Source: Clostridium sp. CAG:433
Lineage (GTDB): Bacteria > Bacillota_I > Bacilli_A > RF39 > UBA660
Direction of reading: 5' to 3'
Length of the DNA: 64,000 bases
Assembly (NCBI GenBank): GCA_000433675.1
Contig: FR893558.1
Coordinates: 17,547-81,546 of the forward strand
Each line of letters opens with the position of its first letter. Positions within the stretch are counted from its first letter, which is position 1. Both the position numbers and the translations under genes were made by a program. The notes beneath the pieces are model-generated. The model worked only from the letters and a program-made list of their open reading frames with translations. It did not search any database and had not been told where the DNA came from. This document shows positions 6,967 to 30,309 of the stretch, one piece after another.

Positions 6967-7053
6967 TTTACATTATTTTACGATTAATACGATTATTTTA
7001 TTGAACACGCTTTTTTGATATGTTATTATGAAAAAGAAGATGGAGGTAAAAAT

Positions 7054-8628
7054 ATGGGAGATAAAAAAGGTTTAAGAAATATAATTTTAATTTTTATTGT
7101 AGTTTTGGTTGCCATTATAATTTCACTTATATTCCTTAGTAAGAAAAATAATAATATAATTCAAAATGAGAATAACAATGAAACTATATCAAATAAAAAT
7201 GCTTTTTGTATTTCTGATAATAATGGAAAATATGCTGTGTTTAATGCAGAAGGAAAACAAATAACAAAATTTGATTTTTCAAATGAATGTGATTTTTATA
7301 ATGGATCATCAGTTGTTAAAAATGATGATGGACAATATGGAATTATAAATACTAGTGGTAAATTTGTTGTAAAGTATGGTAAGTATTCTCATATATCACA
7401 AATTGAATCACTTTATAAAGCATCAAATGAAGGTGTAAATTATGTGTTAAATTCAAAAGGAAAAGAAGTTTTTAAAACAGATGATTATAAGTTTGATTTA
7501 GATGAATCATCAGATGATTCAAATATGTATAAAGCAATGTTAAGCAATGAAATTATATTATTTGACTATAATGGAAAAAAGCTAGATGAAATAAATAGCA
7601 ATTCAAAAACTTCGTATAATGACTTACGATGTAAAGATTTATTTTGTGAGATAGAAATTGATAATAAAACATATATATATAATTTAAAGGAAGGTAAAAG
7701 AATAATTACTTTAGATGGTGAAAATTATATTAATACACATAAAGGTGATATTTTAAGTGTTTATTTACAAAATAATAAATATAATGTATATAAAAACGAT
7801 AAGTTAATACTTGATGGTGTTGAAGCAAGTAATGGACTTGATATATTAGATGATGGATTTGCTGCTAGAAATAGCACGTATACATTATATGATAACGATG
7901 GTAACGTAGTAGATGATACAGTATTTTTCTACAAAGATACTAAAAATTATTTAAAAAAAGATGATTATACTAAGTCAACATATAGTTTTTATAAAGATGG
8001 TAAATTAAGTAAGAAAGATGATACATTAGTTTCACTATTTTCTAATAATGATATATCTTTACAAAATAATTATGACAATTCATTAATTATTATGAGTTCA
8101 AAAAAACAAATTCCTTGTTATGATAACTCAACTTGTTATGGATATAATTTTTACGATTTTTCAGGAAATGCTGTAAATAAAACATCTTATGCAAAAGTAA
8201 AAACTGGCTATTCTGATTATATGTTAGTTTCAGAGGATGGTAAAACAGAATACATAATAAATAAAAAGTTTGAAAAAGTAAGTGATGATTATGATTCAAT
8301 CACATCTATTATTACAAATGATAAGAAAATACATTTTTGGGAAGTATCTAAAGATGGCAAATATGCGATACTTGATGAAAATGGAAAGGTGTTAAAAGAA
8401 AATATTATAGAAAAAGTATTTGTATCATCATCAATACCTAGTGATATAATACAATTAAAATATGATGATAAGGTTGAGCTTTATAACATAAAAGAGAAAA
8501 AAGTTGTAGTAACGTTAGATAAGAATGTAACATTTAATTCATATAATGACTTATATATTAATGTAACAGAAAATGGTGTTAATAATTTTTATTCGTACAT
8601 TAATGGTAAAAAATTCTATAGTAAATAG
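7054..8628 (+). CDS. membrane-anchored protein with WG/YG-type beta repeats
   Basis: ATG 7054 behind GGAGGT RBS. TM helix IILIFIVVLVAIIISLIFL; recurring DG.YG.IN.SGK.V...Y repeats resembling WG-containing (KWG) repeats. Confidence 0.4.
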   Translation: MGDKKGLRNIILIFIVVLVAIIISLIFLSKKNNNIIQNENNNETISNKNAFCISDNNGKYAVFNAEGKQITKFDFSNECDFYNGSSVVKNDDGQYGIINTSGKFVVKYGKYSHISQIESLYKASNEGVNYVLNSKGKEVFKTDDYKFDLDESSDDSNMYKAMLSNEIILFDYNGKKLDEINSNSKTSYNDLRCKDLFCEIEIDNKTYIYNLKEGKRIITLDGENYINTHKGDILSVYLQNNKYNVYKNDKLILDGVEASNGLDILDDGFAARNSTYTLYDNDGNVVDDTVFFYKDTKNYLKKDDYTKSTYSFYKDGKLSKKDDTLVSLFSNNDISLQNNYDNSLIIMSSKKQIPCYDNSTCYGYNFYDFSGNAVNKTSYAKVKTGYSDYMLVSEDGKTEYIINKKFEKVSDDYDSITSIITNDKKIHFWEVSKDGKYAILDENGKVLKENIIEKVFVSSSIPSDIIQLKYDDKVELYNIKEKKVVVTLDKNVTFNSYNDLYINVTENGVNNFYSYINGKKFYSK

Positions 8629-8634
8629 TATTGT

Positions 8635-8678
8635 AAACTAACAAGTAAATGAAAACTTGTTAGTTTCTTTTATTTATT
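8635..8678 (+). terminator. rho-independent terminator
   Basis: AAACTAACAAGT-aaatgaaa-ACTTGTTAGTTT followed by CTTTTATTTATT. Confidence 0.6.
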
Positions 8679-8704: not shown

Positions 8705-10486
8705 ATGAATCAAGATAAAATAAGAAATTTTTCAATAATTGCGCATATAGATCATGGAAAAAGTACAATAGCAGATAGAATGCTTGAGTTAACAGGAGCT
8801 GTTACAAAAAGAGAATCAAAAGATCAGATGCTTGATAATATGGATCTTGAAAGAGAAAGAGGAATAACAATAAAACTTAATGCAGTTAAGTTAAATTATA
8901 AGGGTTATACACTTCATTTAATAGATACTCCAGGTCATGTAGATTTTACATATGAAGTATCTAGAAGTTTAGCTGCCTGTGAAGGAGCAATTTTAGTAGT
9001 TGATGCAGCACAAGGAATAGAAGCACAAACACTAGCAAATGTATATTTAGCTTTAGAAAATGATTTAACTATAATACCAGTTATAAATAAGATAGATTTA
9101 CCTAATGCTGATGTTGATAAAGTAAAAAAAGAATTAAGAGAAGTACTTGGATTTAGTGATGATGAAATAATTTTGACAAGTGCAAAAACAGGTTTTGGTA
9201 TAGATAAATTACTTGATGCTGTAATAGACAGAATTCCATGCCCAAATGGTGAAATAAATTCTAATCTTAGAGGACTTATTTTTGATAGTGTATTTGATTC
9301 ATATAGAGGAGTAGTTATCCAAACTAGAATAGTAGATGGTAAATTAAAAGTAGGAGACAAGATAAGATTTATGAGTACAGGAGCAAGTCATGAAGTAACA
9401 GAACTTGGTGTATCAACTCCAAAAGAAGAAAAGGTAAAAGAACTTGTTTCTGGTGATGTTGGATATGTTTGTGCATCTATTAAAAAAATAAGTGATGTAA
9501 AAATAGGTGATACAATAACTCTTGATGATAATCCTGCTAAAGAAGTATTACCAGGTTATAAAGAAATAAAACCAATGGTATATTCAGGTATTTATCCAGT
9601 AGAAACAAATAAATATAATGATTTAAGGGATGCACTTGAAAAATTAAAACTAAATGATGCATCACTTACATTTGAACCTGAAACAAGTAAAGCTTTAGGA
9701 TTTGGTTTTAGATGTGGATTTTTAGGACTTCTTCATATGGATATAATAAAAGAAAGAATAGAAAGAGAATTTAATATTGAAATAATACTTACAAGTCCAT
9801 CAGTTATTTATACAGTAACGCTTACAAATGGTGATATAGTTTATGTTGATAATCCAACTAAACTTCCTGATAGACAGGTAATTAGTAAAATAGAAGAACC
9901 ATATATTAAAACAAATATTTTTGTACCAAGTGAATTTATAGGACCCGTTATGGAATTATGTCAAAATAAAAGAGGTAATTTTATAAATATGGATTATATT
10001 GATACAAGAGTAAATATACACTATGAACTTCCACTTTCTGAAATAGTATATGATTTCTTTGATAAATTAAAAAGTACAACAAAAGGTTATGCATCATTTG
10101 ATTATGAATTTATTGGTAATAAACAAAGTGATTTGGTTAAGGTTGATATAATGCTTAATGGTGATATAGTAGATGCATTTTCTATTATTACCCATAAAGA
10201 TTTTGCATATAAAAGAGGTAATGCAATTACTCAAAAATTAAAAGAAATAATCCCAAGACAATTATTTGAAGTACCTGTTCAAGCATGTTGTAATAATAAA
10301 GTTATTGCTAGATGTGATATAAAAGCAAATAGAAAAAATGTACTTGCTAAATGTTATGGTGGAGATATTTCAAGAAAAAGAAAATTACTAGAAAAACAAA
10401 AAGAAGGAAAAAAGAAAATGAAGACAATTGGAAGTGTAGAGCTTCCTCCTGAAGCATTCCTTGAAGTATTAAGTGTGGAGGATTAA
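8705..10486 (+). CDS. lepA: elongation factor 4
   Basis: [24 protein letters not shown]-motifs; 593 aa; LepA C-terminal domain. Confidence 0.9.
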
Positions 10487-10487
10487 C

Positions 10488-10805
10488 ATGGATAAAAACA
10501 TGGAAGAAAAAATAAGAGTAGTCGCAAATTATATAGTAGATAATAAAGCAACTATTATAAAAACTGCAGAACATTTTAATATGTCACCTAGTTCAATAAA
10601 AAAGTATATAAATAGTAAAGATAAACTTCAAAGTATTGATATAGAACTATTTAAAAAAGTAAAAGAAACACTAATGGGTATAACTTTAGTTGGACAAATA
10701 GATCATATTAACAAAGAAAAAAATAACAATTTAGAAGGAAAAGATATAATTTGCGGTATGCATGAAAATCATCAACAAAAAATCAAAGTATTAAAAAAAC
10801 TATAA
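10488..10805 (+). CDS. SpoIIID-like small HTH DNA-binding protein
   Basis: ATG 10488 after GTGGAGGA RBS. ~105 aa; EEKIRVVANYIVDNKATIIKTAEHFNMSPSSIKKYI has the architecture of the SpoIIID helix-turn-helix. Confidence 0.35.
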   Translation: MDKNMEEKIRVVANYIVDNKATIIKTAEHFNMSPSSIKKYINSKDKLQSIDIELFKKVKETLMGITLVGQIDHINKEKNNNLEGKDIICGMHENHQQKIKVLKKL

Positions 10806-10882: not shown

Positions 10883-11962
10883 ATGGTAAAAAGTGCATAT
10901 ATACATATACCTTTTTGTAATAATATTTGTAGTTATTGTGATTTTTGTAAACTCTTATATAATAAAGATTTTGTTAAAAAATATTTAGATGCATTAGAAA
11001 AAGAAATTTCTAATAATTATAAGGGCGAAATATTAGATACAATTTATATTGGTGGTGGAACACCTTCCTCTTTAAGTATAGTAGAGTTAAATAAGTTATT
11101 TTCTATTATCAAAATATTTAAATTAAGTAAAGAATATGAATTTACTTTTGAAGTAAATATAGAAGATATAACAGAAGAAAAATTAGAAATATTAAAAGAA
11201 AATAAAGTAAATAGGTTAAGCATTGGAATAGAATCATTTAATGATAAATATTTAAAATATTTAGGTAGAAATTATACTTCTGATATAATAAATGAAAAGG
11301 TAGAATTTGCTAAAAAGTATTTTGATAATATAAATGTAGATTTAATGTATGCACTAAAAAATGAAAGTTTAGATGATTTAGAAGAAGACATAGATAAAAT
11401 ACTTAAACTTGATATAAAGCATATATCTTGCTATTCATTAATAATAGAAAAAAATACTAAACTTTATATTGATAATACAAAGTATATATCTGATGATCTT
11501 GATAGTGATATGTATGATCTTATAGATAAAAAATTAGAGAATAAATATCATAGATATGAAGTAAGTAATTATTCTATTAAACCTTATGAATCAAGGCATA
11601 ATTTAACATATTGGGAAAATAATGAATATTATGGATTTGGTTTGGGAGCAGCTGGTTATATAGGTAATATAAGATACACAAATACTAGAAATTTATCTAA
11701 ATATATATGCGGTAATTATGAAAGGCAAAATGAATTACTTACTAAAGAAGATAAAATAAAGTATGAATTTATATTAGGTTTAAGACTTACAAAGGGAATA
11801 AATAAAGATAATTTTAATAGAAAATATGATATAAATATAAATGAAATAGAAGTTATAAAAGAATTAATTAATAAAGGATTATTAATTGATGATAAAATAA
11901 ATATATATGTACCTAAAAAATATTTTTATGTATTAAACGATATATTAGTAAATTTTGTATAA
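10883..11962 (+). CDS. hemW: radical-SAM heme chaperone HemW (HemN-like)
   Basis: AYIHIPFCNNICSYCDFC (CxxxCxxC); YIGGGTPS; lepA-hemW adjacency; upstream TATAAT at ~10848. Confidence 0.85.
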   Translation: MVKSAYIHIPFCNNICSYCDFCKLLYNKDFVKKYLDALEKEISNNYKGEILDTIYIGGGTPSSLSIVELNKLFSIIKIFKLSKEYEFTFEVNIEDITEEKLEILKENKVNRLSIGIESFNDKYLKYLGRNYTSDIINEKVEFAKKYFDNINVDLMYALKNESLDDLEEDIDKILKLDIKHISCYSLIIEKNTKLYIDNTKYISDDLDSDMYDLIDKKLENKYHRYEVSNYSIKPYESRHNLTYWENNEYYGFGLGAAGYIGNIRYTNTRNLSKYICGNYERQNELLTKEDKIKYEFILGLRLTKGINKDNFNRKYDININEIEVIKELINKGLLIDDKINIYVPKKYFYVLNDILVNFV

Positions 11963-11976
11963 AGGAGAATAAAAAG

Positions 11977-12360
11977 ATGAATGAAGAAAAGAAATTGAAT
12001 GATGATTTTGAAATGATTGATTTTGAAGAGGCATCAGATGAAAATATAGAAACATTGGATGAAACTGATAATAATAGTGAAGAAATTAAGGGTACAATTT
12101 TTGATAATAATAGTACTCAAAATGATAATAAATTGCAAAATCAAAATACTGAAGGAACTGTTATTGATGTAAATAGACTATTTGATGTTCATGAAAAAGA
12201 AGAACAAATTGCAGAGGAAGAAATAAAAAAAGAAGAGAATAAAAAAGATAATAGAATATTAAAAATTCAAGTAGGTTTAATAGTTGCACTTATTTTAATC
12301 GCATCTTTAGTATATTTCTTTGGATATGATTTACTTGAACCATTTATTAAGGTAGATTAG
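11977..12360 (+). CDS. hypothetical acidic protein with C-terminal TM helix
   Basis: Asp/Glu/Asn-rich N-terminus, LKIQVGLIVALILIASLVYFFGY near the C-terminus; first gene of an insertion between hemW and hrcA. Confidence 0.4.
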   Translation: MNEEKKLNDDFEMIDFEEASDENIETLDETDNNSEEIKGTIFDNNSTQNDNKLQNQNTEGTVIDVNRLFDVHEKEEQIAEEEIKKEENKKDNRILKIQVGLIVALILIASLVYFFGYDLLEPFIKVD

Positions 12361-12372
12361 TGGAGAAGAAAA

Positions 12373-14382
12373 ATGAAATATAAAAATGGAGAAGAATTTT
12401 TAAATAAATTATATAGAGAAATGCATACAAGTAGTGAGGTTGTGTATAAAGCAAGTTCCAGTGATACACCAGAAGAAAAAATAAGAAAATATCTATCAAG
12501 ACTAGAACATACACATGAACTTTCTAAAAAGAATGAACATAGTTTAGAATTATTAAAAAAATTTTACTATGATAAGTATTTGATTAAAGAACTACCTGAA
12601 TCATATGTGAATCATCAAAAGGAAATAGCAAGAAAAGAAGGCTATGGAAATGTTTATGTTTCTGATGAAATGAAACAAGGAATGTTAGATCAAGTTAGGA
12701 AAGATCAAAAGTCTACACTTGACTTATGGATTGATTACTTTATAAGTGAAGACTCTATGTATCCAACATGGTTTAAAGTTTATGCGTTTAAGGGAATGTT
12801 AGGTTTAAGTGCATTTAATAAAGAAAAACAAGAGTTTGGTAAAAGAACAGATAAAACAACATTCCCATTTATTGATTTAAATATGGAAGCTTTATCAAAA
12901 GTATATGATATATTAAAAGACGAAATTGGTGAAAATAACCTAACTGATGAAGAACTAGAAATATTATCAAAAGGTGAAAGTTTTAAGAAACTATATACTT
13001 ACTATTTTACAAATCAAGATTCAAAAATAATAAATAATGATGAAACAGAAGGAATATGGGTTAAATATGATATGGGGTCTGATTATATGCCGTTATGGGA
13101 ATCACTACAAGGTAAAAATACAGGATGGTGTACCGCAGGAAAAGAAACCGCAAAAATTCAACTTGAGGGTGGGGACTTTTATGTATATTATACGAAAGAT
13201 GAAACTGATGAATATAAAAATCCAAGAATAGCAATAAGAATGAATGGAAAAAATGAAATTGCTGAAGTAAGAGGAACTAGTAAAAATCAAAATCTGGAAT
13301 CAAATATGGAACCAATACTTGATAAGAAATTAGAAGAATTCCATAACAAAGATAAATATAAAAAGAAAGTTCACGATATGAAACTTTTAACATTAATAGA
13401 AGAAAAGACAAAAAATAATCTAGAATTATCATTAGATGATTTAAAATTTTTATATGAGGTAGATTCAGAAATAGAAGGGTTTGGATATGAAAAAGATCCT
13501 AGAATTGAAGAAATTATTTCTAAAAGAGATAAAAGAAAAGATATTGCGAGGGTTTATAGTGTTAAAGAAGACGAAGTTGCGTTATCTCACAAAGAGTGGA
13601 AAGAAAATAAAGAAAAGGTAAAAATCTGTTGTGGGAATTTATATTTAAATGATTTAAAAAGTGCAAAAGGTTTAAAATTGCCAAACATAGTAATAGGTGG
13701 GGTATCTTTAGATAATTTAACGAGTTCTGAAGGTTTAGTATTACCAGATATAATAAAAGGGAATTTATATTTAGAAAATTTAACGAGTGCTAAAGGCTTA
13801 AAATTGCCGAGCACAATAATTGGGTATTTGAATTTAGAAAAGTTAATAAGCGCTGAAGGTTTAAAGTTACCAAACACAATAAATGGACGTTTATATTTAG
13901 ATAGCTTAACAAGTGCTGAAGGCTTAATATTGCCAGATACAATGAATGGATATTTATGTTTAAAGAGTTTAACGAGTGCTAAAGGCTTAAAATTACCAAA
14001 AACAATAACTGGACATTTAAATTTGAGTGGTTTAAAAAATGCTAAAGACTTAAAATTACCAGATACAATAAATGTGGATTTAAATTTAAGTGGATTGATA
14101 AGCGCTAAAGACTTAAAATTGCCAAACGTAATAAATGGAGATTTATATTTACATAGCTTAACAAGTGCCAAAGACTTAAAATTACCAAGAACAATAACTG
14201 GAGATTTATATTTAAAAGGTTTAACAAGCATCGAAGGTTTAGTATTACCAATTTCATTATTTGGTAGAGTTTATTCGAAAATTGATATTCCTGAAACATG
14301 TTTTATTCCTGATGAAGAATATTATAAATATATAAACGAAGATAAAAATAATGAAAATGATGAAAGAATAAGAAAAATATAA
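12373..14382 (+). CDS. large protein: N-terminal Cys-containing domain + ~14 tandem 20-residue leucine-rich-like repeats
   Basis: Repeat consensus G.LYL..LTSAKGLKLP.TI iterated from ~aa 415 to 630; N-domain motif NTGWCTAGKETAKIQLEGGDFYVYYTKDETDEYKNPRIAIRMNG. Confidence 0.6.
   Translation: MKYKNGEEFLNKLYREMHTSSEVVYKASSSDTPEEKIRKYLSRLEHTHELSKKNEHSLELLKKFYYDKYLIKELPESYVNHQKEIARKEGYGNVYVSDEMKQGMLDQVRKDQKSTLDLWIDYFISEDSMYPTWFKVYAFKGMLGLSAFNKEKQEFGKRTDKTTFPFIDLNMEALSKVYDILKDEIGENNLTDEELEILSKGESFKKLYTYYFTNQDSKIINNDETEGIWVKYDMGSDYMPLWESLQGKNTGWCTAGKETAKIQLEGGDFYVYYTKDETDEYKNPRIAIRMNGKNEIAEVRGTSKNQNLESNMEPILDKKLEEFHNKDKYKKKVHDMKLLTLIEEKTKNNLELSLDDLKFLYEVDSEIEGFGYEKDPRIEEIISKRDKRKDIARVYSVKEDEVALSHKEWKENKEKVKICCGNLYLNDLKSAKGLKLPNIVIGGVSLDNLTSSEGLVLPDIIKGNLYLENLTSAKGLKLPSTIIGYLNLEKLISAEGLKLPNTINGRLYLDSLTSAEGLILPDTMNGYLCLKSLTSAKGLKLPKTITGHLNLSGLKNAKDLKLPDTINVDLNLSGLISAKDLKLPNVINGDLYLHSLTSAKDLKLPRTITGDLYLKGLTSIEGLVLPISLFGRVYSKIDIPETCFIPDEEYYKYINEDKNNENDERIRKI
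13620..14260 (+). repeat. tandem 60-nt coding repeats (20-aa LRR-like units)
   Basis: Direct periodicity of 60 nt, in frame, inside CDS 12373..14382. Confidence 0.7.
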
Positions 14383-14396
14383 AATAAAGATAGATT

Positions 14397-14428
14397 AAAC
14401 ATTTAGAATTTTCTAAATGTTTTTTTAT
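14397..14428 (+). terminator. rho-independent terminator
   Basis: AAACATTTAGAA-tt-TTCTAAATGTTT then TTTTATT. Confidence 0.6.
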
Positions 14429-14484
14429 TGACTAATTTATCAAATTTCTATAAAATATATAACCGTGAAAAAGAGGTGCATTAT

Positions 14485-15402
14485 ATGAAAAATATAGAAG
14501 AATTATTACCTAAAAATATATGTGAGATAAATGGTAAAACAATTAAAATTACAAGTGATGAATTTTATGATTTTACTATTAATAAAAAATTTAATAATAT
14601 GGGTATGTTAAGCTTTGAAATATATGACGCAAGTAAAAGAAGTCATCAGAGTGTCATAAATGCTTATCAATTTATTAAATATTTAAATGAAAATAAAGTA
14701 AAAAGTATAAATATAAATGCATCTGATGAGTTAATTCCGGTTTATATTGATGTATTAAATAGATTAAATTATAATGGAAAATGTAATATATCATTATATA
14801 TAGAGAGAATGAATATGAATGAAAAGGAACATTTACCACTTGATTTAGATAATTCTAAAGACAAAATAGATATTCCAGCAAGAAGACTTATTTGGCAACC
14901 TAAACTTACAAAATTAGAAAATGTAATTGAAAATAGTACATTAAGTCAGGCAAAGATGTTAAAAAGACATATTCTTAGTATTTCAAATGATATAAATGAA
15001 AAGTATAATATTGATGATTTAAATTTTTATGACAGAATTTTATATATTTACAATTATATAAATAATCTTAATCTTGATGGTAAAGATTCTTTATATATAT
15101 CAAATTTAATAAGTGCACTTCTTAATAACCCTGTTTTAAAAGTAGATGCTAAAGTTATAACGGGCAAAGTTGATGATTCTGATTACTCAATTGTTGGAAT
15201 AGTAAATAGTGAGAGTGAGAACATTTTAGAATGCACCGCAATAACTAATAATCCATTTGAAAAAAAGAATATAGAAGTAGATAAACCAGAAATATTACTT
15301 TCAAAAACTCAAAATTTAGATTCTTATTTATATAGTCATTATAATATAGATAAAGATTCTGAAAAGAAATTAATAAAACATTTTGATAGTTTAAGAAAAT
15401 AA
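14485..15402 (+). CDS. hypothetical protein
   Basis: ATG 14485 behind AAGAGGTG RBS (tool start TTG 14428 lies inside the terminator); no recognisable motifs. Confidence 0.45.
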   Translation: MKNIEELLPKNICEINGKTIKITSDEFYDFTINKKFNNMGMLSFEIYDASKRSHQSVINAYQFIKYLNENKVKSININASDELIPVYIDVLNRLNYNGKCNISLYIERMNMNEKEHLPLDLDNSKDKIDIPARRLIWQPKLTKLENVIENSTLSQAKMLKRHILSISNDINEKYNIDDLNFYDRILYIYNYINNLNLDGKDSLYISNLISALLNNPVLKVDAKVITGKVDDSDYSIVGIVNSESENILECTAITNNPFEKKNIEVDKPEILLSKTQNLDSYLYSHYNIDKDSEKKLIKHFDSLRK

Positions 15403-15444
15403 AATATGATGTAAAATTCATATTTTTTTAATATTTCAAAATAA

Positions 15445-15486
15445 TTAGCACTCATCTATTGACATTGCTAAAATAAGTGCTATAAT
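15445..15486 (+). promoter_or_regulatory. hrcA sigmaA promoter (TTGACA-17-TATAAT) overlapped by an atypical CIRCE (HrcA operator)
   Basis: TTAGCACTC (15445-53) -9 nt- CATTGCTAA (7/9 to GAGTGCTAA), and a second right-half-like AAGTGCTATAA overlapping the -10. Confidence 0.5.
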
Positions 15487-15517
15487 TAGATTGTACACTT
15501 GGATTAGAGGTGAATAT

Positions 15518-16507
15518 ATGCTTACAGAAAGACAAAGTGCTATATTAAAAATTATAGTTGAAGAGTATATAAAAGTACCAAAGCCAGTTGGTTCAAAATC
15601 TATTTGTGATTCATTAAATGTATCTAGTGCGACAGTTAGAAATGAAATGGCTAACTTAGAAGATTTAGGATACTTAGAAAAAACACATGTATCATCAGGT
15701 AGAGTTCCATCTGAGAAAGGTTATAGATATTACGTTGATAATTTAATGAAGCCAAAAGAAATGAGTGGTGAAGATGTATTAAAACTTCAAACAATATTTC
15801 AAAATAATTCATTAGTATTAAGCGATGCAATAATAAAAAGCCTAGAGATAATATCTGAAATGACTAATTATACAGCAGTTATATTAAAGGATAATGCTTT
15901 GGAAAGTAAACTTAAAAAAGTTGAAGCAATTCCAATTGATGAAAATAATGTAACAGCTATCCTTGTAACAGATAAAGGACATGTTGAAAATAAAATAATT
16001 AATATAACAGGTTCTAATCTAGAGGAAGTAAATAAAACTGTTGAACTTATTAATAAACTTATTGTTGGTACTCCAATTGATGAAGTTACATCTAAACTAG
16101 AATTTGAAATTAAACCAATTATTAATCAATATGTAAAACATCATGAAATACTTTATAATGCGTTCTATAATGCATTTAATAATTTTAAAGATAGTGCAGA
16201 TATGACTATGAGGGGTAAAAATAATTTACTTGAACTTGATGAATTTTCATCTGATGCTAGAAAAATTAAAGATTTAGTTAATAAGTTTGATAATGAAAAT
16301 ATTGTTTCTAAGATTAAAGAAGATGACTCTGGTATAAATGTGTACATAGGTAATGAAAACAACATAGATGATGATTTGACAGTAATAAAAACAAAATATA
16401 ATGTAAATGGTAGAGAAGGAACACTTGCGATTCTAGGACCAAAAAGAATGGAATATGATAGAGTTGTAAGTTTACTTGAATACTTAAAAGAAGAGATTGA
16501 AAAGTAA
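15518..16507 (+). CDS. hrcA: heat-inducible transcription repressor HrcA
   Basis: MLTERQSAILKIIVEEYIK..PVGSKS N-terminal wHTH; ATG 15518 behind AGAGGTGA RBS; upstream CIRCE; precedes grpE-dnaK. Confidence 0.85.
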   Translation: MLTERQSAILKIIVEEYIKVPKPVGSKSICDSLNVSSATVRNEMANLEDLGYLEKTHVSSGRVPSEKGYRYYVDNLMKPKEMSGEDVLKLQTIFQNNSLVLSDAIIKSLEIISEMTNYTAVILKDNALESKLKKVEAIPIDENNVTAILVTDKGHVENKIINITGSNLEEVNKTVELINKLIVGTPIDEVTSKLEFEIKPIINQYVKHHEILYNAFYNAFNNFKDSADMTMRGKNNLLELDEFSSDARKIKDLVNKFDNENIVSKIKEDDSGINVYIGNENNIDDDLTVIKTKYNVNGREGTLAILGPKRMEYDRVVSLLEYLKEEIEK

Positions 16508-16519
16508 GGAGGTTTCTTT

Positions 16520-18891
<2,372 letters not shown>

Positions 18892-18901
18892 TAAATAGAA
18901 G

Positions 18902-18936
18902 TTTAGAAGTCCAATAGTGGGCTTCTAAATTTGTTT
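18902..18936 (+). terminator. weak hairpin/attenuating terminator between dnaK and pepF
   Basis: TTTAGAAG-12nt-CTTCTAAA then TTTGTTT. Confidence 0.35.
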
Positions 18937-18952
18937 AATAAAAGGAGAACAT

Positions 18953-20761
18953 ATGACTGAAATAATAAAAGATAGAAGTATGATTGATGATAAATATAAA
19001 TGGGATTTAACTAAGGTATATAAAACAAATGATGATTTTGAAAGTGACTGCAAGAAAGTAAAAAATTTAATTACAGAATATAGAAAAAAGTATGAAAATC
19101 ATACTATGGATAACGCTAAAATATTTTATGATTCTATAGTTGATGAAATAGAAATAGAAAGATTACTTGAAAAATTATATAGTTATTCAAATCTAAAAAA
19201 AGATGAAGATGTAGCAAATACAGAAAATCAAGAACTTAGAAGTAAGGTTGTTAATTTATATGATTATGCATCTAAGAACATGTTTTTTACAAGTACTGAA
19301 ATGTTAAAAAAAGATTATTCTTTAATAGAAGATTTTTATAAAGAGGAACCAAGACTTTTAGAACATGAAAATAATTTGAAAGATTCATTTAGATATAAAA
19401 AATATATGTTGTCTGATGAAGAAGAAAAATTATTATCAAATATATCAAAAGCATTTGGTAATGATGAAGAAACATATGGTTATTTAGTTGATTCTGATAT
19501 GACTTTTGGTGAAATTAAAGATGAAAATGGTAATATGGTAGAACTTACTGATACAAATTATAGTGTTTATATAGAGTCTAAAAATAGAAGTGTTAGAAAA
19601 GATGCTTTTGAATCATTATATAATCATTATAAACAATTTAAAAATACAATTACATCATTATTTAATGGTTCTATTAATGAAAGTGTTAGTATGGCAAAAT
19701 TAAGAGGATATCCTTCAGCATTTTTGGCATCACTTTATAAAGATGATATGAAAGAAAGTGTTTATAATACTTTAGTAGATACAATTCATAATAATTTAGA
19801 TGTATATCAAAAATATTATGAATTAAAAAAAGAAGTTCTTAATCTAGATGAATTACATTTATATGATATATATACTCCTATGATAGATGAAGGAGATAAA
19901 AAGTATTCATTTGAAGAAGCTAAAGAAATGGTTTTAAATGCACTTAGTGTTTTAGGTGATGATTACGTTAATAACTTTAAAAAAATCTTTGATGAAAAAT
20001 GGGTAGATGTTTATCCAAATAAAAATAAAAGAGGAGGAGCATACTCTGGTGGATGTTATGATACATATCCATATATTCTTTTAAACTATCAAGGATCACT
20101 TAATGATGTATCAACACTTGCACATGAAGGTGGACATTCTATGCATACTTACTATACTGTAAATAATCAGCCTATTCAGTATGGAAGTTATCCAATATTT
20201 GTGGCTGAAGTAGCAAGTACTGTAAATGAAATATTACTTTCAAAATATTTACTTAAAACAAGTAAAAATAAAGAAGAAAAACTAATTGTACTTAATAAAT
20301 TACTTGAATTATTTAAAGGTACAATATATCGTCAAGTTATGTTTTCTGAATTTGAAAAATACGCATATGATTTAATAGAAAATGATGATGTAATTACATC
20401 TGATAAATTATGTGATAAATACTATGAACTAAATAAATTATATTTTGGTGAAAATGTAGTAGTAGATGATTTAATTAGATATGAATGGGAAAAAGTTCCT
20501 CATTTCTATTATGATTTCTATGTATATAAATATGCGACAGGAATAAGTGCTGCATGTAAAATAGCAGAAGGTATTTTAAATAATGTAGAGGGAGCACTAG
20601 ATAATTATTTAAAAATGCTTAAAAATGGATGCAGAGAAAATCCTTTAAATACATTAAAAATTGCAGGAGTAGATATGGAAGATAAAGAAGTATACGAAAG
20701 TGCGATTAGAATGTTTGATGAAGCAATAGAAGAATTTAGAACTTTATCAAATGAAAAATAG
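18953..20761 (+). CDS. pepF: oligoendopeptidase F (M3B)
   Basis: HEGGHSMH zinc motif; 602 aa. Confidence 0.85.
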   Translation: MTEIIKDRSMIDDKYKWDLTKVYKTNDDFESDCKKVKNLITEYRKKYENHTMDNAKIFYDSIVDEIEIERLLEKLYSYSNLKKDEDVANTENQELRSKVVNLYDYASKNMFFTSTEMLKKDYSLIEDFYKEEPRLLEHENNLKDSFRYKKYMLSDEEEKLLSNISKAFGNDEETYGYLVDSDMTFGEIKDENGNMVELTDTNYSVYIESKNRSVRKDAFESLYNHYKQFKNTITSLFNGSINESVSMAKLRGYPSAFLASLYKDDMKESVYNTLVDTIHNNLDVYQKYYELKKEVLNLDELHLYDIYTPMIDEGDKKYSFEEAKEMVLNALSVLGDDYVNNFKKIFDEKWVDVYPNKNKRGGAYSGGCYDTYPYILLNYQGSLNDVSTLAHEGGHSMHTYYTVNNQPIQYGSYPIFVAEVASTVNEILLSKYLLKTSKNKEEKLIVLNKLLELFKGTIYRQVMFSEFEKYAYDLIENDDVITSDKLCDKYYELNKLYFGENVVVDDLIRYEWEKVPHFYYDFYVYKYATGISAACKIAEGILNNVEGALDNYLKMLKNGCRENPLNTLKIAGVDMEDKEVYESAIRMFDEAIEEFRTLSNEK

Positions 20762-30257: not shown

Positions 30258-30309
30258 TAAAATAATATGTTATAATATATATCCGTGTGTAAAGGAGGAA
30301 AAAAATAAA

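Follow-up and report, generated by a model that had tools for sequence, protein, structure and literature searches.

In the Bacillus subtilis-type cluster the genes lepA-hemN(hemW)-hrcA-grpE-dnaK-dnaJ follow each other under the control of HrcA and its operator CIRCE (controlling inverted repeat of chaperone expression). Here we describe the interval between hemW and hrcA in a 64-kb stretch of DNA (64,000 nucleotides, hereafter the window) of Clostridium sp. CAG:433 (contig FR893558.1, positions 17,547 to 81,546), a member of a clade of uncultured, very AT-rich gut Bacilli whose metagenome-assembled genomes (MAGs) are labeled Bacilli, Tenericutes or Mycoplasmatota. The window resembles the B. 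subtilis-type cluster in its gene order (gpr-spoIIP-lepA-hemW...hrcA-grpE-dnaK...dnaJ) and in the CIRCE inverted repeat lying over the hrcA promoter. It differs in that one clade-wide gene (g1) and two lineage-specific genes (g2 and g3) are located between hemW and hrcA, in that pepF separates dnaK from dnaJ, and in that hemW lies away from hrcA in most related species. In an earlier reading, made from the sequence only, the three intervening genes were regarded as a lineage-specific island inserted into a conserved junction. The observations described below favor, with moderate confidence, a recurrently remodeled slot that is also a rearrangement breakpoint, rather than one insertion.

The interval between hemW and hrcA in related genomes

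A scan for HrcA with one genome per species yielded 80 loci (59-99% identity), and gene order upstream of hrcA was surveyed in the 55 loci that had at least 5 kb of upstream sequence. The hemW-hrcA junction is not conserved in this clade: hemW was found within 10 kb upstream of hrcA in 11 of the 55 loci only, and with this the premise of the sequence-only reading, that hemW is normally followed directly by hrcA, fell away. A g1-type gene stands directly behind hemW in 9 out of 9 related loci, each representing a species, in which hemW is still next to hrcA (L003, L004, L007, L008, L013, L016, L017, L018 and L021), and g1 also follows hemW in all CAG-433 loci. Because it is found behind hemW in all nine junction-keeping loci, g1 is a conserved partner of hemW and not cargo.

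The slot behind g1 is variable. The next relatives, L004 (HrcA 85% identical) and L007 (72%), have the order hemW-g1-hrcA with an empty slot, and the slot is likewise empty in L016, L017 and L021; in L004, 51 bp stand in place of window positions 12360-15444. Both g2 and g3 were found in the window and in L081, L084, L091, L092, L119 and L089/L090, and g2 only in L117 and probably in L001, whose contig starts inside g2. Other cargo found in the slot includes an HTH_3 protein with two open reading frames (ORFs) in L003, a 369-amino-acid (aa) ORF in L008, a BspA LRR_5 protein in L013 and an APH-like kinase in L018. At the hemW-hrcA site g2 and g3 are confined to the CAG-433 species complex, and the variable unit is g2+g3 (about 12361-15444), not three genes. 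Lineage specificity, which had been ascribed to all three genes, can be maintained for g2 and g3, absent from L004 and L007; it does not apply to g1, which recurs at this junction across the clade, and g3 varies apart from g2.

The ORFs found as cargo in L003 (6896-9440, coding for 546 aa and 296 aa) and in L008 (8794-9903, 369 aa) appear to code for a small group of paralogues that putatively bind DNA. These proteins have a common C-terminal motif, '...(I/L)(N/S)EEY(I/V)...(V/I)Y...(C/G)LE/N..K', and HTH_3 was found in the 546-aa protein.

A breakpoint was located in the gap from the g3 hairpin to CIRCE. Behind hemW-g1-g2-g3, both HRGM_Genome_2006 and, as an independent case, contig L089 carry a C39 ABC transporter and rpsU-yqeY-yabP-yqfD, which in HRGM_Genome_2006 continue into ybeY-era-recO. 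The hrcA-grpE-dnaK-pepF-dnaJ block of HRGM_Genome_2006 is translocated behind RNase R, yvcK and an HD-domain gene, and its hrcA operon is 97.9% identical to the window in nucleotide sequence from position 15421 onward. Homology of the window to L089/L090 stops at 15428, and that to L002 starts at 15421.

The features of the locus are as follows (coordinates in the window, strand, description, basis):

10883-11962, +, hemW, radical-SAM haem chaperone, left core flank (TIGR00539, E 1.8e-88; Radical_SAM and HemN_C)
11977-12360, +, g1, 127-aa acidic membrane protein, predicted to be C-terminally anchored (charge, transmembrane segment, relatives)
12373-14382, +, g2, 669-aa two-module protein (more than 3,246 homologues)
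12373-13632, +, N-terminal conserved domain of g2, residues 1-420 (phmmer family, invariant columns)
13042-13497, +, core module of g2, about residues 224-375, common with phage polyvalent virion proteins (22 IMG/VR loci)
13569-14309, +, C-terminal array of g2, about 10 leucine-rich repeat (LRR)-like 21-aa repeats (Tandem Repeats Finder, direct-repeat family D1, AlphaFold2)
14397-14427, +, intrinsic terminator after g2, closing the probable hemW-g1-g2 unit (11-bp stem and U7; -12.3 kcal/mol, z -4.95)
14428-14456, +, putative promoter-like site for g3, TTGACT-17-TAAAAT (consensus scan, 10/12)
14485-15402, +, g3, 305-aa orphan protein, predicted to form its own transcription unit (25 clusters)
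15401-15427, +, weak hairpin and U7 following g3, with the breakpoint just within and behind it (-6.4 kcal/mol, z -2.05)
15445-15486, +, CIRCE-like operator (15445-15471) overlapping the hrcA sigma-70 promoter (15459-15486)
15518-16507, +, hrcA, right core flank, followed by grpE, dnaK, pepF and dnaJ (TIGR00331, E 8.1e-90; ATG at 15518)

The complete order is lepA (8705-10486), a SpoIIID-like helix-turn-helix (HTH) gene (10488-10805), hemW, g1, g2, g3, hrcA, grpE, dnaK, pepF and dnaJ. As to the presence of the three genes, the terminator at 14397, directly after g2, and the hrcA promoter with CIRCE, the sequence-only reading was confirmed. The terminator is also kept in L089. The CIRCE-like inverted repeat contains two mismatches (0.00 matches expected by chance), and the overlapping promoter agrees with the sigma-70 consensus at 12 of 12 positions and carries a TG extension; both are conserved in L001-L004, L007 and L117. 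Since CIRCE and promoter are intact and conserved, the autoregulation of hrcA is untouched. There is only one CIRCE in the window, located 3' of g3 and of the g3 hairpin, and it serves hrcA only, not g1-g3. The start of g1 is 14 nt past the hemW stop and is preceded by an AAGGAG ribosome-binding site, whereas g2, with GGAG, starts 12 nt past the g1 stop; on account of this short distance g2 is probably co-transcribed with hemW-g1. Expression of g3 would be monocistronic, from its own promoter-like site and to its own terminator.

Proteins identical to those of g1, g2 and g3 are on record for Clostridium sp. CAG:433 as hypothetical proteins (CDD29327.1, CDD29329.1 and CDD29330.1), and these sequences recur on tens to hundreds of human-gut contigs. 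Pairwise dN/dS values were 0.27-0.41 for g1, 0.12-0.17 for the g2 N-domain and 0.16-0.31 for g3. Conservation in many assemblies and dN/dS values between 0.12 and 0.41 show that all three ORFs are real genes under purifying selection.

The first gene, g1, had been described as acidic and tail-anchored, and this description is consistent with its 33 D/E versus 13 K/R residues and its single C-terminal hydrophobic segment (Kyte-Doolittle value 2.58 at residue 94). The product would be a small acidic tail-anchored membrane protein translated directly after hemW. In L003, L004, L007, L008 and in all CAG-433 loci the g1 proteins have an acidic N-terminus, one C-terminal transmembrane segment and the tail ...YFFGYD(L/F)xEPFIK(I/V/L)(D/E), and those of L013, L016, L017, L018 and L021 are architectural equivalents, which end in ...Y(I/M/L)IG(I/F)(E/D)(K/R)(V/I)(I/F)(S/T)FIK. 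Family scans of g1 (Pfam, NCBIfam, PHROGs, PADLOC) gave nothing significant; a PADLOC match to Cas4 at E 0.023 was judged to be due to chance.

Translation of g3 from the ATG at 14485, which is preceded by AAAGAGGTG, gives 305 aa, one residue fewer than the length stated before, and the mechanical ORF starting from TTG 14428 comprises 324 aa. The designation of g3 as an orphan was upheld. Its homologues (302-306 aa) form 25 clusters only, all at least 67% identical and all at the same locus type, and no match was obtained in Pfam, NCBIfam, PHROGs or PADLOC; as judged from these searches, g3 is a genus-level orphan. The AlphaFold2 model was unusable (predicted local distance difference test, pLDDT, 43), and a soluble alpha/beta protein may be assumed. 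Because g3 is missing next to g2 in L117 and L001, and also next to a g2 paralogue found at the mutS locus (see below), it is not an obligate partner of g2. A stretch of about 45 nt from the 3' end of g3 is left in L117 and indicates a deletion of g3 there.

The g2 protein and its family

The 669-aa repeat protein of the earlier description was found as such, with its repeats joined to a conserved N-terminal domain. A word-indexed search returned more than 3,246 homologues of g2, and an exhaustive phmmer search with residues 1-420 returned 1,870 clusters (at 50% identity) at E<=1e-3 and 1,010 at E<=1e-30. Thus, g2 belongs to a large uncharacterized family of at least 1,870 such clusters. In members that are 38-58% identical, the invariant residues of the N-domain include Q112, W119, Y122, W133, R158, E172, T250, W252 and C253, then G267, D268, P284, R285, E298, R300, G301, Q306 and an FGY..DPR motif, and its signature can be written as TGWC...GD...PR...ExRG...Q. 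No match to g2 was found in Pfam, NCBIfam, PHROGs, PADLOC or among PDB sequences, and a 23-sequence profile of the N-domain matched nothing in PDB or Pfam. Foldseek comparison of the AlphaFold2 model with PDB gave nothing at E<1; scattered Foldseek matches to E2-ubiquitin conjugases (probability 0.01-0.02) were judged to be noise. Literature searches on DUF4116, a repeat found in some relatives (see below), and on CAG-433 returned nothing functional.

The tandem repeat of g2 (13637-14251) has a period of 63 bp, corresponding to 21 aa, and about 9.4 copies according to Tandem Repeats Finder; direct-repeat family D1 comprises 8 copies. The consensus is L-x-L-x-x-L-T-S-A-E-G-L-x-L-P-x-T-I-N-G-x, and AlphaFold2 predicted a regular solenoid (pLDDT about 90) with one short strand per repeat. 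In having tandem leucine-rich units of about 21 aa, an 'LxLP...I.G' strand motif and a predicted solenoid, g2 resembles the BspA/TpLRR proteins (Pfam LRR_5) and the IpaH/SspH proteins (LRR and NEL). With the IpaH/SspH type of LRR-plus-effector proteins it also has in common that the repeat module is joined to a conserved domain bearing an invariant Cys, and with the BspA type that genuine LRR_5 occurs among the relatives of g2 (P0183 matches LRR_5 at 2.2e-8). In contrast to Pfam LRR proteins, g2 matches no LRR model of Pfam and no LRR structure by Foldseek; unlike in IpaH, the domain order is reversed and there is no secretion signal, and no relation of the N-domain to NEL, or to other families in PDB or Pfam, could be detected. 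The label LRR-like is therefore used here as a provisional one, based on the repeat pattern, the AlphaFold2 model and the LRR_5-bearing relatives. In the family as a whole the C-terminal partner varies and can consist of LRR-like 21-mers, BspA-type LRR_5 or 12 DUF4116 repeats. The orthologues of g2 at the hemW locus are 588-767 aa long and differ mostly in repeat number. An antisense ORF of 214 aa inside the repeat array (13587-14231, - strand), with a periodic sequence of its own, is no gene but a consequence of the 63-bp repeat.

Neither a signal peptide nor a transmembrane segment was found in g2, which is predicted to be a cytoplasmic two-module protein; many family members of other phyla carry N-terminal signal peptides or lipoboxes. 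The core module of g2 was detected in 22 IMG/VR loci. The A3 profile, in which the core occupies positions of about 258-353, scored 40-82 bits on 18 ORFs of IMG/VR viral contigs, 853-3,370 aa long when taken mechanically from stop to stop. LPD38 or LPD39 was present in three of the four scanned phage ORFs bearing the core, and in some phage ORFs LRR-like repeats again come after the g2-type core. Among polyvalent proteins, LPD38 has been listed as confined to those of the phage type (Iyer et al. 2017, PMC5512222), in a paper where a term search found LRR, leucine-rich repeats and PcfJ unmentioned. Thus, the similarity to the polyvalent proteins of phages and conjugative elements consists of a core of about 95-150 aa (TGWCTAG...GDFYVYY...PRIAIRM...EVRG..QN) lying within their giant ORFs. 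In contrast to these, g2 is a stand-alone, chromosomal protein of 669 aa, it has no LPD or MPTase domain, and its core matches none of the Pfam LPD models. We conclude that g2 itself is not a polyvalent protein of a phage or an integrative conjugative element, and that only the core module is common to them.

A full-length homologue of the g2 N-domain (473 bits) was also found in IMG/VR contig L093 (5989-8028), which is classed as viral. The C-terminal half of this homologue is non-repetitive and unrelated to the g2 repeats.

A relationship of g2 to the PcfJ-like domain (PF14284; pCF10 PcfJ) was considered and found no support. When compared by eye, the two are similar in the order and spacing of HCVG/WCTAG, a beta hairpin and I.Q.RG..N / I.EVRG..QN, and hhalign takes the same register over 67 columns, although without statistical support: probability was 0.3% (E 0.21), or 1.3% versus a single sequence, with a PcfJ profile that was thin and built from near-identical Enterococcus fragments, so that a remote relationship is still conceivable. 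There was no hmmscan match, and the Pfam PcfJ hidden Markov model matched PcfJ at 9e-27 and left g2 and the phage cores unmatched.

As to function, it is conceivable that the repeats are a rapidly evolving target-binding module, which would steer the conserved Cys-bearing domain to a partner, possibly in a setting of inter-organism or phage-host conflict. Extending this, we tentatively put forward, as a possibility held with low confidence, that the TGWCT domain of g2 is a very widespread module not described before, serving in inter-organism conflict as an effector domain (with invariant Cys and Asp/Arg/Glu) for catalysis or for engaging a target, that the repeats are its specificity module, and that the hemW-hrcA slot is one of several chromosomal sites with divergent effector alleles. 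The domain may fall into three groups: signal-less LRR/DUF4116 fusions of gut Firmicutes, secreted or lipoprotein forms of other phyla, and giant phage-ejected polyvalent proteins. This family, which is very large and unannotated, combines a conserved domain with hypervariable LRR/DUF4116 repeats and has a core reused by phage polyvalent proteins, is the more valuable lead provided by the locus. Characterization of the domain could annotate thousands of hypothetical proteins, and might bring to light a new effector activity between phages, or microbes, and their hosts.

Explanations for the accessory genes

The foreign origin implied by the sequence-only reading found no support in base composition or codon usage. 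The GC contents of g1, g2 and g3 are 0.241, 0.271 and 0.216, respectively, compared to a window mean of 0.249 ± 0.030, and the codon distances are 0.138, 0.103 and 0.087, compared to 0.102 ± 0.035; the values are inside the distribution of the window, the sole mild deviation being a high GC content at third codon positions of g2 (z +1.85). Target-site duplications, which had been named as something to look for, were not found around the segment, nor were flanking direct or inverted repeats; the repeat search detected only the internal 63-bp array and short chance matches. No recombinase or integrase domain was found in the segment in the Pfam and NCBIfam scans, and no tRNA in the Rfam scan of the whole window, which gave zero matches. 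Comparison with conspecific contigs yielded synonymous divergence (dS) values of 0.07-0.15 for lepA, hemW and hrcA in most cases (hrcA 0.27 in L091), whereas the g2 N-domain gave 0.43-0.51 in five of six comparisons and 0.26 in L091, and values of up to 0.67 were obtained for g3 and g1 in some pairs. Compared with the flanking core genes, g2 and g3 show a synonymous divergence 3-5 times as high, and the raised dS of the accessory segment points to much older or imported alleles. In genomes that match the window at 94-98% identity in the flanks, a g2 paralogue (904/820 aa) and a GH5 cellulase stand between mutS and a peptidase-M18 gene, a site occupied in the window by a 316-aa ORF. When the flanks of g2 at the hemW site and at the mutS site were compared to see if a cassette had been shared, the ORF alone was common, and the upstream leader and the terminator differed. 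Native composition, absence of mobility signs and sharing of the ORF only argue against a discrete mobile island, and we favor duplication, recombination and deletion at permissive gaps between operons over such an element.

A single g1-g2-g3 island, recently acquired by horizontal transfer and splitting a conserved hemW-hrcA junction, would account for the absence of g2+g3 from L004 and L007, for the higher divergence of g2 and g3 than of their flanks between conspecific genomes, and for the g2 paralogue at another junction of near-identical genomes. It is nevertheless improbable, because g1 is clade-wide, g3 varies independently of g2, neither composition nor the repeat, integrase and tRNA searches gave a sign of it, tblastn of the g2 N-domain found no match in phage and plasmid collections, and the junction exists in 11 of 55 loci only. 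Unlikely, if somewhat less so, is that g2 is a surface or spore-surface adhesin-like LRR protein of the BspA/internalin type, which would use its repeat number to tune binding to host or substrate and would reach the surface via mother-cell deposition or a non-classical route. The LRR-like repeats, the relatives with BspA-type LRR_5, other LRR_5 proteins at variable junctions of the clade (the L013 slot; window 30310-32208), the many family members in other phyla with signal peptides or lipoboxes and the abundance of sporulation genes nearby (gpr, spoIIP and the spoIIID-like gene) speak for this assumption. However, g2 and its Firmicute relatives lack a signal peptide, a transmembrane segment and a wall-anchor or S-layer-homology domain detectable with Pfam, g2 is apparently co-transcribed with the housekeeping gene hemW, and its core module also occurs inside phage-ejected polyvalent proteins.

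The same core module, together with the adjacency, strain variability and fast divergence of g2 and g3 and with a hypervariable repeat sensor joined to a conserved domain, which recalls immune sensors, could suggest that g2+g3 is a two-gene conflict module (toxin-immunity, or anti-phage sensor and effector). We consider this very unlikely: g3 is missing from the g2-bearing L117 and L001, at the mutS locus the gene behind the paralogue codes for a GH5 cellulase instead of a g3 homologue, g2 and g3 are set apart by a terminator and by the putative promoter of g3, there are no PADLOC matches, and the 25 clusters of g3 compare with thousands for g2. The island, the adhesin and the conflict pair are each less well supported than the remodeled slot.

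According to the favored reading, the ancestral order of the clade would have been hemW-g1-hrcA, and the slot, the 50-120 bp or so from the g1 stop to the hrcA CIRCE/promoter, would be a permissive site which was repeatedly filled, emptied and refilled. Genes in the slot would disturb neither the hemW-g1 transcript nor HrcA autoregulation, and they may be tolerated since the operon upstream of the slot has no terminator and the promoter downstream of it is self-contained. In the CAG-433 complex it would be occupied by g2, appended to the hemW-g1 transcript, which would end at 14427, and by g3 as a unit of its own, both inherited and recombined inside the complex with no mobile element as carrier. 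Later g3 would have been deleted in some strains, and in one genome type the whole hrcA operon would have moved off, with the breakpoint just past g3. The flux of accessory genes at this hot spot is of an ordinary kind: the composition is native, and a signature of mobility is missing. It provides a clear example of how the textbook-conserved lepA-hemW-hrcA-dnaK neighborhood has been remodeled in uncultured gut Bacilli. That a short promoter-proximal spacer is a recurrent landing and loss site and a rearrangement breakpoint is useful for pangenome and synteny annotation, if unsurprising.

Several points weigh against this interpretation or parts of it. The direction of change (gain in the CAG-433 lineage versus loss elsewhere) was deduced from about 20 loci without a species tree, and support for homology of the distant g1-type proteins to the close ones is weak (hhalign probability 66% over 19 residues). 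Co-transcription of hemW-g1-g2 and the promoter of g3 were read from sequence alone. No LRR family was matched in Pfam by g2 at E<=1 or by its C-terminal 254 aa at E<=0.1, nor any LRR structure by Foldseek, and the AlphaFold2 model of g2 (62 homologues) is unreliable in the N-domain, with pLDDT <50 at residues 125-337. PADLOC defense-system models match neither g2 nor g3, and none matches g1 beyond chance. Finally, most comparison genomes are MAGs, and mis-binning or chimeric contigs could create some of the apparent rearrangements; as a counterweight, the L089 arrangement was found in two independent assemblies.

Rearrangements and variable sites nearby

The block from the hrcA promoter to dnaK (15397-19063) is 97-98% identical in nucleotide sequence in L001, L002 and L003, which represent three different GTDB species and have flanks that are either unrelated or much more divergent; hemW of L003 is 72% identical in nucleotide and 61% in amino acid sequence, and its downstream pepF 29% in amino acid sequence. 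This suggests that the chaperone operon was recently exchanged between species as a cassette, with its limits at CIRCE/promoter on one side and shortly after dnaK on the other; MAG chimerism is an alternative explanation. The gene for oligoendopeptidase F (M3) between dnaK and dnaJ (18953-20761) has the same position in most of the related loci; in L001 and L003 pepF has either diverged strongly or been replaced. In L059, lepA-hemW is found downstream of hrcA-grpE-dnaK-pepF, the reverse of the usual order and a further sign of clade-wide rearrangement.

The mutS/peptidase-M18 junction (window 40136-41086; L085-L088, L115, L116) is a second variable slot, filled by the unannotated 316-aa ORF in the window and by the 820-904 aa g2 paralogue with the GH5 cellulase in near-identical genomes. 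A segment of about 7 kb between recD2 and mutS (window 30258-37369) is missing at that position in L086. It contains a 632-aa BspA-type LRR_5 protein (30310-32208), an rlmN-like radical-SAM gene, a PASTA Ser/Thr kinase and three further ORFs, which indicates a local core-gene rearrangement together with another LRR protein.

Upstream of hemW, a 537-aa ORF (7004-8669) between a yqxA-like gene and lepA contains near its N-terminus a hydrophobic segment, judged by eye to be a possible membrane anchor, and matches nothing in Pfam significantly. The window, L081 and L091 have this ORF, L084 and L089 lack it, and it thus represents a further strain-level indel. The SpoIIID-like HTH gene (10488-10805) is also polymorphic: it is deleted in L081 and L089, where window positions 10499-10756 are missing, and codes for 105 aa in the window and L091 and for 155 aa in L084, L117 and L119.

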